UHGV virus genome: UHGV-0071544
DNA length: 17,196 bases
Reading direction: 5' to 3' (one strand)
DNA from: a virus
The translations under genes were made by a program, and so were the position numbers. The notes below the pieces were generated by a model, which ran no database searches, was not told where the DNA came from, and saw only the letters and a list, made by a program, of their open reading frames with translations. Shown piece by piece: positions 8,380 to 11,747 of the stretch; the stretch's first letter is position 1; every line of letters begins with the position of its first letter.

Positions 8380-9219
8380 ATGAAGAATGGTTTTTATGCG
8401 ACTTACCGCAGCAAAAATAAAGGGAAAGATAAGCGCTCAATAAACCTGTCTGTTTTCCTTAATTCTCTGCTGGCTGATAATCATCACCTGCAGGTTGGCT
8501 CCAATTATTTGTATATTCATAAAATCGATGGAAAAACTTTTCTCTTTACCAAAACAAATGACAAGAGTCTGGTTCAGAAGATAAATCGCTCTAAAGCTTC
8601 AGTTGAAGATATTAAGAACAGCCTCGCAGATGACGAATCATTGGGATTCCCATCTTTTTTGTTTGTTGAAGGCGACACCATTGGTTTTGCCAGAACTGTT
8701 TTCGGGCCGACCACATCCGATCTGACAGATTTTTTAATCGGGAAAGGAATGTCATTAAGCAGTGGAGAGCGCGTTCAGATAGAGCCACTGATGAGGGGAA
8801 CCACCAAAGACGATGTTATGCATATGCATTTCATCGGCCGAACAACGGTGAAGGTAGAAGCCAAGCTACCTGTATTTGGCGATATATTAAAGGTCTTAGG
8901 GGCAACAGATATTGAAGGGGAGCTTTTTGACTCATTGGATATAGTCATTAAGCCAAAATTTAAAAGGGATATAAAAAAGGTTGCCAAGGATATTATTTTT
9001 AACCCGTCACCTCAATTTTCAGACATTAGCCTGCGGGCAAAAGATGAGGCCGGAGATATTTTAACAGAACATTATCTATCAGAAAAAGGCCATCTCTCAG
9101 CGCCTCTGAACAAGGTCACCAATGCTGAGATAGCTGAAGAGATGGCATATTGCTACGCAAGAATGAAAAGTGATATACTGGAATGTTTTAAAAGGCAGGT
9201 GGGCAAAGTTAAGGATTAA
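8380..9219 (+). CDS. rexA: RexA (exclusion system sensor/activator)
   Basis: 279 aa, same length and sequence as lambda RexA as recalled; immediately downstream of cI in the pRM operon. Confidence 0.9.
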   Translation: MKNGFYATYRSKNKGKDKRSINLSVFLNSLLADNHHLQVGSNYLYIHKIDGKTFLFTKTNDKSLVQKINRSKASVEDIKNSLADDESLGFPSFLFVEGDTIGFARTVFGPTTSDLTDFLIGKGMSLSSGERVQIEPLMRGTTKDDVMHMHFIGRTTVKVEAKLPVFGDILKVLGATDIEGELFDSLDIVIKPKFKRDIKKVAKDIIFNPSPQFSDISLRAKDEAGDILTEHYLSEKGHLSAPLNKVTNAEIAEEMAYCYARMKSDILECFKRQVGKVKD

Positions 9220-9234
9220 TTATCAGGAGTAATT

Positions 9235-9669
9235 ATGCGGAACAGAATCATGCCTGGTGTTTACATAGTAATAATTCCTTACGTTATCGTAAGCATTTGC
9301 TATCTCCTTTTCCGCCACTACATTCCTGGTGTTTCTTTTTCAGCTCATAGAGATGGTCTTGGGGCGACATTGTCATCATATGCAGGAACCATGATTGCAA
9401 TCCTGATTGCTGCCTTGACGTTTCTAATCGGAAGCAGAACGCGCCGACTGGCCAAGATTAGAGAGTATGGGTATATGACATCGGTAGTTATTGTCTATGC
9501 CCTTAGTTTTGTTGAGCTTGGAGCTTTGTTTTTCTGCGGGTTATTGCTTCTTTCCAGCATAAGCGGCTACATGATACCCACTATCGCCATCGGCATTGCC
9601 TCTGCATCGTTCATTCATATATGCATCCTTGTTTTCCAACTATATAATTTGACCAGAGAACAAGAATAA
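9235..9669 (+). CDS. rexB: RexB (membrane ion-channel component of Rex exclusion)
   Basis: 144 aa with four hydrophobic segments; lambda RexB as recalled. Confidence 0.9.
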   Translation: MRNRIMPGVYIVIIPYVIVSICYLLFRHYIPGVSFSAHRDGLGATLSSYAGTMIAILIAALTFLIGSRTRRLAKIREYGYMTSVVIVYALSFVELGALFFCGLLLLSSISGYMIPTIAIGIASASFIHICILVFQLYNLTREQE

Positions 9670-9697
9670 CCCGGCCTCAGCGCCGGGTTTTCTTTGC
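9669..9697 (+). terminator. Intrinsic terminator ending the cI-rexAB operon (timm-like)
   Basis: ACCCGGC-ctcagc-GCCGGGT followed by TTTCTTTG directly after the rexB stop. Confidence 0.7.
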
Positions 9698-9845: not shown

Positions 9846-9908
9846 AACCATCTGCGGTGATAAATTATCTCTGGCGGTGTTGACATAAATACCACTGGCG
9901 GTGATACT
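9846..9908 (+). promoter_or_regulatory. Left operator oL3-oL2-oL1 and pL promoter
   Basis: aaccatctgcggtgata (9846-9862), tatctctggcggtgttg (9866-9882), taccactggcggtgata (9890-9906); -35 TTGACA 9880-9885, -10 GATACT 9903-9908. Confidence 0.9.
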
Positions 9909-9947: not shown

Positions 9948-9978
9948 CGCTCTTAAAAATTAAGCCCTGAAGAAGGGC
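9948..9978 (+). promoter_or_regulatory. nutL (boxA CGCTCTTA, boxB GCCCTGAAGAAGGGC)
   Basis: boxA 9948-9955, boxB hairpin 9964-9978, in the pL leader upstream of N. Confidence 0.85.
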
Positions 9979-10088: not shown

Positions 10089-10415
10089 ATGGATGCACAA
10101 GCACGCCGCCGCGAACGTCGCGCAGAGAAACAGGCTCAATGGAAAGCAGCAAATCCCCTGTTGGTTGGGGTAAGCGCAAAACCAGTTAACCGCCCTATTC
10201 TCTCGCTGAATCGCAAACCGAAATCACGAGTAGAAAGCGCACTGAATCCAATAGACCTTACAGTGCTGGCTGAATACCACGAACAGATTGAAAGCAACCT
10301 GCAACGTATTGAGCGCAAGAATCAGCGCACATGGTACAGCAAGCCACGCAGTGAAATGGGTGTGACTTGTGTTGGTCGCCAGAAAATGAAATTAGGCAGC
10401 AAACCACTTATTTGA
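10089..10415 (+). CDS. N: N antiterminator
   Basis: ATG 10089 with SD AGGAGA gives 107 aa; arginine-rich motif MDAQARRRERRAEKQAQWKAAN; lambda-N-like except the last about 25 residues, which differ from lambda as I recall. Track ORF start 9999 is a leader extension. Confidence 0.9.
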   Translation: MDAQARRRERRAEKQAQWKAANPLLVGVSAKPVNRPILSLNRKPKSRVESALNPIDLTVLAEYHEQIESNLQRIERKNQRTWYSKPRSEMGVTCVGRQKMKLGSKPLI

Positions 10416-10423
10416 GGTGATAT

Positions 10424-10675
10424 ATGGAATTTCATGAAAGTGCGATTTATGATTTTCGCGCTAACGCAAATTCAGTAAAACCACAGCCAATTGCAGTTCT
10501 TTTTAAAACAATGGGTGCGTGGGCTGTTTTATGCTTCGCCGCTGATGACACTGACGCAAGAATGGCAATAGGCCAAGAGATGGAGATGGACCCGACAAAC
10601 GATGAATTCATAATTTATGGCGCTCCATCTAATTACTTACTTGATACCTGCAACATTTACAACAAGGCTGCCTGA
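10424..10675 (+). CDS. Hypothetical acidic protein (83 aa), first gene of the cassette at the sieB/ral position
   Basis: Strong RBS GAGGTGATAT-ATG 9 nt after the N stop; no recognisable motif; followed by a hairpin plus T-run. Confidence 0.55.
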   Translation: MEFHESAIYDFRANANSVKPQPIAVLFKTMGAWAVLCFAADDTDARMAIGQEMEMDPTNDEFIIYGAPSNYLLDTCNIYNKAA

Positions 10676-10733
10676 TGGTGGCCTTTATTTTTGGCCGTAA
10701 ATAATTTCATGCTTATTACAATCAAGGTGATAT

Positions 10734-11183
10734 ATGGAAGAACAAGCAAACAAGATTCTCGTAGAACTACTGCAAAAAGCCAGTAATGGAATAGACGCGG
10801 CTGTTTCATTTAGCCAGGCACAGATTCCTGATGTTGTTCATCAGTTGCTGCTATGGAATATGGTTGACAGTCTGATTAAAACATTAATGGCCATTCTAAC
10901 AATCCCACTGGTTTTCTGGTTTATGAAGAAGCAGTGCCAAAGAGTTGAGACAGGTAAAATCGGTGATGAAGGATATTCATGGGAGAAAGGAAATCCCAAA
11001 TACAGGCCGACAATGGTTTGGGATAGCAAAGGTGATATTAATCTTCTTATCATGCCATTGGTTGGAGTTTTGACTCTGTGGGGGATTTTTATTATTGGTG
11101 TAGTAACCAATATGACTTGGTTAAAAATTTGGCTGGCCCCAAAGCTTTACCTTATCGAATATGCAGCATCATTGGTTAAGTAA
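10734..11183 (+). CDS. Hypothetical two-pass membrane protein (149 aa), candidate superinfection-exclusion or abortive-infection factor
   Basis: Two hydrophobic helices (LIKTLMAILTIPLVFWFM and INLLIMPLVGVLTLWGIFIIGVV); same 15-nt RBS/start module as the upstream gene; followed by a strong intrinsic terminator; occupies the lambda sieB-equivalent position. Confidence 0.65.
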   Translation: MEEQANKILVELLQKASNGIDAAVSFSQAQIPDVVHQLLLWNMVDSLIKTLMAILTIPLVFWFMKKQCQRVETGKIGDEGYSWEKGNPKYRPTMVWDSKGDINLLIMPLVGVLTLWGIFIIGVVTNMTWLKIWLAPKLYLIEYAASLVK

Positions 11184-11188
11184 TTTCA

Positions 11189-11213
11189 GGCCGCATGGTC
11201 GGCCTTTATTTTT
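11189..11213 (+). terminator. Intrinsic terminator after the membrane-protein gene
   Basis: GGCCG-catggt-CGGCC followed by TTTATTTTT. Confidence 0.65.
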
Positions 11214-11332
11214 GGCATAAACAACAGAATAAACACTGCACTGTGTATTCATTCCAACGAGTGAATACACGGAGCAATGTCGCTCGTAACTAAACAGGAG
11301 CCGACTTGTTCTGATTATTGGAAATCTTCTTT

Positions 11333-11359
11333 GCCCTCCAATGTGAGGGCGATTTTTTA
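11333..11359 (+). terminator. Intrinsic terminator upstream of ea10-like gene (tL-type)
   Basis: GCCCTC-caatgt-GAGGGC followed by GATTTTTTAT, 20 nt before the ea10 RBS. Confidence 0.6.
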
Positions 11360-11378
11360 TCTATGAGGAAATGAATAG

Positions 11379-11747
11379 ATGTCAAACATCAAAAAATACA
11401 TCATTGATTACGACTGGAAAGCATCAATAGAAATTGAAATCGACCATGACGTAATGACAGAGGAAAAACTTCACCAGATTAATAATTTCTGGTCAGACTC
11501 TGAATACCGACTCAATAAACACGGCGCTGTATTAAATGCTGTATTAATCATGCTGGCGCAACATGCTCTGCTTATAGCAATTTCGAAAGACTTAAATGCA
11601 TATGGTGTTGTTTGTGAGTTCGACTGGGATGATGGAAATGGTCAGGAAGGATGGCCTCCAATGGATGGTAGTGAAGGAATAAGAATTACCGATATCGATA
11701 CATCAGGAATATTTGATTCAGATGATATGACTATCAAAGCCGCCTGA
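11379..11747 (+). CDS. Ea10-like protein (lambda early-left protein)
   Basis: 122 aa, same length as lambda Ea10 and in the equivalent position between the N-proximal genes and cIII; SD GAGGA upstream. Identity to lambda Ea10 not verifiable here. Confidence 0.6.
   Translation: MSNIKKYIIDYDWKASIEIEIDHDVMTEEKLHQINNFWSDSEYRLNKHGAVLNAVLIMLAQHALLIAISKDLNAYGVVCEFDWDDGNGQEGWPPMDGSEGIRITDIDTSGIFDSDDMTIKAA

Follow-up and report, generated by a model that had tools for sequence, protein, structure and literature searches.

The interval between N and ea10 of virus genome UHGV-0071544 is probably a slot for exchangeable cassettes in the early-left operon of a lambdoid phage

The virus genome UHGV-0071544 was analysed over a stretch of 17,196 nucleotides, here called the window, which represents the early-left (pL) operon of an HK97/lambda-like phage. 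Two small genes, orf83 and orf149, lie there between the antiterminator gene N and ea10. The original prediction, made without database searches, had taken them for a moron-like two-gene cassette with an exclusion or abortive-infection function. Comparison with other phages indicated that the interval from N to ea10 and the small RNA (sRNA) PreS just upstream of it is probably a slot that receives cassettes in a lambdoid pL operon under N antitermination, and not a two-gene defence system. The short conserved boundaries of the slot, together with the long PreS-ea10 flank, would supply the homology by which phage or host recombination could swap, add or delete cassettes. The layout is of the same kind as the orf28-ral cassette of lambda and fits the long-described picture of lambdoid mosaicism and boundary sequences.

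Shared cassette boundaries

Both open reading frames (ORFs) were recovered as first described, co-oriented between N and ea10, and both open with the same 15-nt module, AGGTGATATATGGAA, consisting of a Shine-Dalgarno sequence, a spacer and ATG GAA (coordinates in Table 1). The two copies were exact and had no further occurrence in the window, against a chance expectation of 0.02 (shuffled sequence, up to two mismatches). A 16-nt tail, GGCCTTTATTTTTGGC, was likewise exact at 10680-10695 and 11201-11216 and had no other copy in the window (0.01 matches expected in shuffled sequence with up to two mismatches). With N as the immediate upstream neighbour of a cassette, the TGA that ends N overlaps the Shine-Dalgarno sequence of the module. 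The near-identical terminator-like repeats noted after the two genes are present, the difference between them being a 1-nt insertion (ATGGT-GGCC vs ATGGT-C-GGCC) and no substitution; the length of 21 nt holds for the first copy, and the second has 22 nt owing to the inserted base. Each cassette closes with a G+C hairpin followed by the tail TTTATTTTTGGC. The hairpin of T1, the predicted terminator after orf83, has a free energy of -13.9 kcal/mol (10664-10685), and its stem and loop contain the last codons (KAA) and the stop of the gene; the hairpin of T2, after orf149, has -9.7 kcal/mol (11188-11205). Between 9600 and 12000, 7 terminator-like sites were found vs 2.2 expected.

The same boundaries were found in lambda, where the start module opens orf28 (AAGGTGATATATGGAAGAA), a short acidic ORF overlapping ral, and a hairpin with the tail AAAGCTGCCTGATAGTGGCCTTTATTTTTGGC follows ral. 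The module was present in all five comparison loci and the exact tail in four of the five, Gally, the prophage of LF82, having a tail with one mismatch. At least five unrelated cassettes, namely orf28-ral, orf83, orf149, orf62 and orf107, use these boundaries and sit singly or stacked between N and PreS. In a census of the IMG/VR contigs holding the 15-mer, it stood before orf28-ral about 50 times, before orf149 21 times and before orf83 8 times; it also opened orf62 (DUF7167) and orf107, both of which end with the same tail, and its other matches were chance matches in unrelated phages. Read from N to PreS, the slot contained orf28-Ral; SieB (on the opposite strand) and orf28-Ral; orf28-Ral and orf149; orf83; orf83 and orf149; orf149; or orf62. 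In VT2-Sakai the order was N-orf83-ea10, with orf149 absent precisely between two tail copies. The duplicated modules had been read as traces of cassette duplication or insertion by recombination, and this part of the original prediction gained support: the same boundaries surround five unrelated cassettes, and the presence or absence of orf149 is precise. As with morons, slot genes found in one phage are missing from related ones, in which their neighbours adjoin, and each is followed by its own predicted terminator (hairpin plus T tract).

At nucleotide resolution, the 5' junction where a cassette adjoins N reads ...CCACTTATTTGAGGTGATATATGGAA, and similarity among the five cassettes ends precisely behind the second codon (ATGGAA). 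At the 3' junction, a type A hairpin (AAGGCTGCC-TGAT-GGTGGCCTT) closes ral and orf83, and a type B hairpin (AGGCCG-CATAGT-CGGCCT, with the loop CATGGT for orf149 of the window) closes orf149, orf62 and orf107; TTTATTTTTGGCATAA follows both types. Ral, orf83 and orf107 are unrelated proteins that all end in K-A-A-stop inside the hairpin, because these codons belong to the hairpin. That five unrelated genes share their first two codons, and three their last three, would be explained by recombination joints lying inside coding sequence. The pairing of the orf83 hairpin is kept by compensatory changes, AGGCTGCC/GGCGGCCT in Citrobacter and AGGCCGTC/GGCGGCCT in Klebsiella, which indicates that selection also acts on the RNA structure of the hairpins.

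The proteins encoded by orf62 (DUF7167) and orf107 (phrog_1372), taken from the IMG/VR loci L023 and L027, have net charges of -10 and -17, and those of orf28 and orf83 have -12 and -7, so that small, very acidic proteins accompany Ral in the slot. Upstream of lambda orf28 (L005 1553-1600, - strand), the sequence ...CCGCAATCCACTATTTAAGGTGATATATGG is similar to the end of N joined to the start module in phages without sieB (GCAGCAAACCACTTATTTGAGGTGATATATGG; compare positions 10395-10429 of the window). Judged from these letters, the resemblance suggests that the lambda sieB segment may have been inserted between N and an older junction of N end and module.

Independent occurrence of orf83 and orf149

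Among 5426 complete E. coli genomes, orf83 was found in 403 and orf149 in 242, and the two were adjacent in 5. Both occurred together in a single phage record, that of Gally. Each gene matched other genomes at 100% identity separately, which marks the window as a recombinant stack. The proposed two-gene unit is not borne out by this independent occurrence: the window probably combines two independent cassettes, each common by itself and rarely stacked with the other, and no defence pair.

The PreS block downstream of orf149

Positions 11201-11378 of the window aligned without gaps with lambda 34082-33905, 173 of the 178 positions being identical. In lambda, the spacer between ral and ea10 encodes the Hfq-dependent sRNA LPR1/PreS, which is approximately 88 nt long, is processed to approximately 68 nt, has its 3' end at tL2a, is a lytic-cycle product and increases the translation of dnaN (bioRxiv 10.1101/2024.10.31.621285). 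The preprint assigned LPR1 at an identity of at least 92% to lambda LPR1. The equivalent in the window is identical at 87 of 88 positions, lies just upstream of ea10 and has a 3' G+C hairpin with a U tail equal to tL2a. Because the PreS equivalent ends there, the "second terminator" of the original prediction is tL2a, and the LPR1/PreS part of the interval is already known.

The 9-bp inverted repeat that had been reported upstream of this terminator is real; it sits at 11243-11270, one base further left than described, and extends to a 14-bp stem. The resulting hairpin directly precedes the PreS equivalent; lambda, VT2-Sakai, CP55 and Gally have it without a single base change, and in HK633 one basal stem base differs. 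It may direct processing of the PreS 5' end. Inverted repeat and second terminator had both been counted as cassette parts; both are elements of the conserved lambda ral-ea10 block that encodes LPR1/PreS. Rfam searches of the whole window returned no match at gathering thresholds, and only chance-level matches were seen at E ≤ 1 in 10300-11500; PreS has no model in Rfam 15.

The orf149 family

The description of orf149 as a 149-amino-acid protein with two transmembrane helices (TM1 and TM2) was confirmed by two hydrophobic segments at approximately 44-64 and 105-126, as was that of orf83 as an acidic protein of 83 amino acids (pI 4.24, net charge -7). The AlphaFold2 model of orf149 had helices at 33-68 and 106-125, with a mean predicted local distance difference test (pLDDT) score of only 63. 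The statement that neither protein belongs to a recognised family holds for Pfam (E ≤ 1), NCBIfam and PADLOC (E ≤ 1), where neither had a match. It does not hold for PHROGs, since both fall into families of unknown function, phrog_2471 (orf83) and phrog_3054 (orf149). The match of orf149 to phrog_3054 covered the full length (E 4.2e-64), and ten of ten diverse homologues matched it too. Clustering at 90% identity gave at least 1445 clusters for the family, none of them with a name or a Pfam domain, and a literature search for phrog_3054 gave no result. A sequence-profile search of orf149 against PDB chains returned no match, and ten diverse members of the family had no match among the holin families of Pfam.

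Homologues of orf149 were found in prophages of Enterobacterales, Pseudomonas, Achromobacter, Proteus and Providencia, and in virulent phages, including N4-like Schitoviridae of Salmonella and Vibrio, phi92-like Justusliebigvirus, a Ralstonia jumbo phage and Pseudomonas phages. In lambda-like and P22-like phages the gene follows N, or N and sieB, and in N4-like phages it lies among nucleotide-metabolism genes. In the phi92-like phage PHB05 (L154 2983-5806) the homologue is followed by ATPase and endonuclease genes. In prophages of five genera (Pantoea, Buttiauxella, Dryocola, Proteus and Providencia), a phrog_3054 gene starts within a few bases of the Rz/Rz1 end, in the same late operon; the holins upstream of these genes belong to three different Pfam families. 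In two further cases (E. coli relatives and one Enterobacteriaceae metagenome-assembled genome) a lysis cassette is followed by an ANT-family gene and then by the homologue. The occurrence of the family in virulent phages and lytic operons argues for a role in the membrane of the infected cell and against protection of the lysogen; a role in the lytic cycle is more likely than one in the lysogen.

The two ends of the protein are nearly invariant, with approximately 42 N-terminal residues (...AVSFSQAQIPDVxHQLLVW) and 22 C-terminal residues (WLKIWLAPKLYLIEYAAxLxK) conserved, and the TM1-loop-TM2 part between them varies in sequence and length, with loops of 15 to 73 residues. For the termini, five more distant comparisons gave a saturated proportion of synonymous differences (pS 0.6-1.0) and a proportion of nonsynonymous differences (pN) of 0.04-0.10, with 0.01-0.02 against the closest relative (L133); pN in the middle was 0.14-0.43. 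Saturated pS with low pN in the termini indicates that the constraint acts on the protein and not on the DNA. The first 12 loop residues after TM1 held on average 3.8 lysine or arginine residues (K/R), the N terminus had a net charge of -2.4, and the C tail, which is hydrophobic and amphipathic, one of +2. The conserved N- and C-terminal segments might be the working parts of a protein that perhaps acts in the membrane of the infected cell during lytic growth. With its unusual pattern of conserved ends and variable middle, this widespread membrane family merits experiment.

As a side observation, a gene for a DNA/RNA non-specific endonuclease (PF01223) begins 4 bases after the orf149 homologue of an E. 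coli prophage (L129 4001-5122). This neighbour and the endonuclease gene of PHB05 may be coincidence.

The orf83 family

The gene orf83 had a full-length profile match to phrog_2471 (E 1.2e-60) and was under purifying selection (pS 0.70 vs pN 0.16); it is a real gene of a small, narrow family. An indexed search gave 19 clusters, and a profile search run exhaustively over 1.84 billion representatives gave 7 sequences, 2 of them false positives. The latter, P0141 and P0142, are tandem-repeat proteins of 3126 and 1357 amino acids whose E-values (1e-32 and 2e-13) summed weak repeat matches, a caution on the use of whole-sequence E-values for repeat proteins. A sequence-profile search against PDB chains gave only chance-level matches, the AlphaFold2 model was of low confidence (pLDDT 67), and a Foldseek search of both orf83 and orf149 against BFVD gave no match below E 0.09.

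In Shiga-toxin (Stx) phages and in Klebsiella, orf83 is the first gene after N, as it is after an N-type gene in one Citrobacter prophage; in a second Citrobacter prophage, in which no N is annotated, it occupies third place after the repressor. It was found with three different N types and, in the loci sampled, never in one slot with orf28-ral. Because orf83 precedes the first terminator, it lies in the portion of the pL transcript made before N acts, and an immediate-early product is expected. On this anatomy and on established lambda biology, orf83 is likely an immediate-early gene that would be made together with N, and orf149 and the genes further downstream would need N-dependent read-through of T1. 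Position and composition hint weakly, for orf83 as for the other small acidic proteins of the slot, at early antagonism of some host or defence factor as the most likely role. As a candidate immediate-early gene of many Shiga-toxin phages, it is worth experiment.

Promoters and expression

A scan for sigma-70-like promoters from N to ea10 found no consensus site and only a weak one inside orf83. The hexamer TACAAT at 10717-10722 was rejected as a promoter, having no usable -35 element and implying a transcript that would begin inside the Shine-Dalgarno sequence. Expression could be followed in LF82, whose prophage Gally carries the same pair of genes at 97.9% identity. After overnight growth in lysogeny broth (LB), normalised counts were 18.6 for orf149, 16.7 for orf83, 7.9 for N and 727 for the C2 repressor, with a prophage median of 15.6; the authors described Gally as devoid of morons, from a screen that rested on LB data alone (PMC9928086). 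The proposal that the genes act as a prophage-expressed defence or moron function did not find support here: no consensus promoter was found, expression was at background in the LF82 lysogen in LB, although orf149 RNA was raised in another medium (see below), and the orf149 family occurs in virulent phages. In lytic growth, orf149 may still have an exclusion activity.

Relation to known systems

The closest counterpart is the lambda block comprising orf28-ral and tL2a/PreS (lambda 33905-34357), which has an identical start module and tail and the same strand, operon and N control; the type A hairpin of lambda ral equals T1 apart from one loop base. It differs in that orf83 is unrelated to Ral, that orf149 has no counterpart in lambda, and that lambda has sieB between N and orf28 on the other strand, whereas the slot genes of the window are co-oriented with pL. 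A comparison of orf83 with Ral (PF11058) gave an hhalign probability of 0.2%, the shared part being only the terminal KAA encoded by the shared hairpin.

The SieB/Esc proteins of lambda and P22 (PF14163) are encoded in the same general neighbourhood after N, and SieB and orf149 are both membrane proteins. SieB is expressed from its own promoter in lysogens and has N-terminal membrane segments and a soluble C-terminal half. The architectures differ: SieB has 184 amino acids, and in orf149 the membrane hairpin is central, between two conserved termini. There was no Pfam match of orf149 to SieB at E ≤ 1, and an alignment of orf149 homologues compared with lambda SieB by hhalign had a probability of 0.3%. 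The P22-like phage SPLA1b has both a sieB-type gene and an orf149 homologue, so these do not replace each other. The earlier placing of the pair at a sieB-type exclusion locus is not sustained, because lambda sieB is on the opposite strand, the slot genes run with pL as orf28-ral does, and orf149 shows no relation to SieB. The outcome that would have made the two proteins ordinary SieB or Ral equivalents was likewise not found, neither of them matching by Pfam or hhalign. A defence assignment through PADLOC, which had been suggested as a check, gave no match for either protein at E ≤ 1, nor did PADLOC-DB 2.0 for Ea10 at E ≤ 1.

Morons and the conserved boundary sequences of mosaic lambdoid genomes were reportedly described by Hendrix, Juhala and Clark. 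The slot genes resemble lambdoid morons in their presence or absence, their own terminators, their lower G+C content and their short conserved junction sequences. They differ in having no detected promoter of their own and no clear lysogen expression in LB, and in boundaries that reach into coding sequence (first two codons, last three codons and stop). In layout only, the slot is also reminiscent of integron arrays, with promoterless ORFs bearing 3' hairpins, in variable number and order, behind one promoter. In contrast to integrons, the hairpins of the window look like intrinsic terminators, and homology runs into long flanks, which fits general recombination. An integron-like site-specific recombination was set aside on the layout, as no integron integrase or attC-like site was evident and the junctions lie in ordinary homology. 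A Red-recombination paper that names ea10 and ral treats them as insertion sites only.

Alternative explanations

Several points weigh against an exchangeable slot whose genes serve the lytic cycle. Recombination at the boundaries is deduced from comparing junctions, and their conservation could reflect selection for translation and termination signals; T1 and T2 are terminators by prediction. Beyond the two PHROGs, no family, structure or fold match was obtained for either protein, and both AlphaFold2 models were of low confidence (63 and 67). The K/R-rich stretch after TM1 suggests a cytoplasmic loop, yet the C tail is net positive. Expression is a further point: after 6 h in Dulbecco's modified Eagle medium (DMEM), log2 values in LF82 were approximately 7.0 for orf149 (GALLYPH_30 is the homologue), 4.0 for N, 5.9 for orf83 and 4.8 for the next gene, which places orf149 RNA approximately 8-fold above N and 4.5-fold above the next gene, and in macrophages orf149 stays high and all three upstream genes rise (PMC9928086, Table S1). 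This rise could reflect a condition-dependent promoter and some prophage expression, or it may reflect a stable RNA segment between two hairpins in spontaneously induced cells. The proposal that orf83 and orf149 together form a moron-like prophage cassette that acts against superinfecting phages by exclusion or abortive infection, in the manner of sieB or rexAB, would draw on these RNA levels, on the locus being where lambda has sieB, on the resemblance of orf149 to the many exclusion proteins that are small membrane proteins, and on a G+C content lower than that of N (0.42 and 0.40 vs 0.495) with a terminator for each gene. We nevertheless consider it very unlikely, given that the genes are adjacent in 5 of 5426 genomes against 403 and 242 singly, run with pL without a consensus promoter and at background in the LB lysogen, match neither PADLOC models nor SieB, and include a family that is common in virulent phages, where there is no lysogen to protect; lysogen-expressed genes in this type of genome moreover have their slot downstream of cI, here filled by rexAB. 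The boundaries might instead be kept purely as expression signals, around cassettes that came by illegitimate recombination and were then selected. The strong Shine-Dalgarno sequence, its ideal spacing and the overlap with the N stop would fit such signals, compensatory stem changes across genera indicate selection on RNA structure, and lambdoid phages often have terminators of unknown role inside operons (PMC8022706). We hold this to be distinctly improbable, since it leaves unexplained why five unrelated proteins have GAA as second codon and three end in K-A-A-stop, why 15-16 nt are exactly identical where far more degenerate signals would work, and why direct tail repeats flank orf149 as gain and loss mediated by homology would leave them.

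For orf149 within the preferred cassette slot, three candidate roles ranked about equal on the available sequence comparisons: control of lysis or the envelope, immunity to superinfection, and counteraction of a host or defence factor based in the membrane. An accessory function in the lysis machinery, as a lysis-timing regulator or envelope factor for which the position in the pL operon would be secondary, is suggested by the homologues directly after Rz/Rz1 in five genera and by the small two-helix membrane protein itself; we see it as a possible but less likely reading. The cassettes preceding these genes have three unrelated holin families and two endolysin types, which makes a specific antiholin partnership unlikely, and a recognised holin is already there where the gene follows Rz. 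There is no holin match in Pfam, the C tail is hydrophobic and not highly charged, and lambda-, P22-, N4- and phi92-like phages have the gene well away from their lysis genes, in early regions or regions of DNA metabolism. In addition, the region after Rz is a common site of accessory genes in lambdoid genomes. Immunity to superinfection like that of T4 Imm, provided by the infecting or induced phage and blocking DNA entry or envelope damage, would suit a small inner-membrane protein of early operons in many phages, virulent ones included, and a highly variable membrane hairpin and loop such as an arms-race surface might show. We judge it unlikely: the searches revealed no resemblance to Imm, Sp, SieA, SieB or a PADLOC model, the segments under the strongest constraint are the same in phages with unrelated hosts and entry routes, for which a conserved cellular target fits better, and the late-operon position after Rz in many phages would be odd for immunity.

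A more far-reaching interpretation, which we offer tentatively and regard as doubtful, is that phrog_3054 is an undescribed lytic-cycle membrane family whose ends engage one conserved component of the envelope or inner membrane, and that the slot is a miniature cassette array with hairpins as its joints. If so, phrog_3054 would have a function general to Gram-negative hosts and common to temperate and virulent phages, such as superinfection immunity, control of envelope or lysis, or neutralisation of a membrane-based defence, and hairpin terminators would double as recombination joints that graft K-A-A-stop onto incoming genes. The analysis also removes a false lead, in that the interval holds no new two-gene defence system and part of it is a published sRNA, and it provides a clean, testable example of lambdoid mosaicism at nucleotide resolution.

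Genomic setting and coordinates

The order of genes and sites on the + strand is rexA, rexB, pL/nutL, N, orf83, orf149, PreS/tL2a and ea10 (Table 1), and the whole window is nearest to HK97 (96.7% identity over 61% coverage). The hairpin upstream of N is presumably boxB, an assignment that draws on established knowledge of lambda nutL, and its position places everything downstream under N antitermination.

Table 1. Features of the window in the region from rexA to ea10.
Feature	Position	Strand	Description
rexA	8380-9219	+	
rexB	9235-9669	+	
pL-like promoter	9880-9908	+	TTGACA-17-GATACT
boxB-like hairpin of nutL	9964-9978	+	GCCCTGAAGAAGGGC; read from sequence, flagged in hairpin scan; upstream of N
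N antiterminator, lambda type	10089-10415	+	Pfam N36, E 3.2e-25
Start module 1	10415-10429	+	AGGTGATATATGGAA (Shine-Dalgarno, spacer, ATG GAA); 5' cassette boundary; exact repeat
orf83	10424-10675	+	acidic soluble protein of 83 amino acids, phrog_2471; first gene after N, ahead of first terminator
T1, predicted terminator	10664-10695	+	type A hairpin AAGGCTGCC-TGAT-GGTGGCCTT and tail TATTTTTGGC
Start module 2	10725-10739	+	exact copy of module 1; 5' boundary of orf149 cassette
orf149	10734-11183	+	two-helix inner-membrane protein, phrog_3054; termini 1-44 and 128-149 conserved, TM1-loop-TM2 variable
T2, predicted terminator	11188-11216	+	type B hairpin AGGCCG-CATGGT-CGGCCT and tail TTATTTTTGGC; 3' boundary of orf149 cassette
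14-bp hairpin	11241-11272	+	immediately 5' of PreS equivalent; -18.8 kcal/mol
LPR1/PreS equivalent, 88 nt	11272-11359	+	87/88 identical to lambda; 5' end inferred from published length of approximately 88 nt
tL2a-type terminator	11331-11359	+	PreS 3' end; hairpin 11331-11352 (-12.9 kcal/mol) and T run
ea10 (DUF2528)	11379-11747	+	conserved right flank of slot; Pfam E 4.1e-46

The slot downstream of cI, which in this type of genome typically carries lysogen-expressed protective genes, is occupied in the window by rexA and rexB, the classical abortive-infection pair of lambda, followed by a bidirectional hairpin at 9668-9689. In other phages the same slot held HicA and DUF1902 (CP55) or H0093/H0092 (VT2-Sakai).

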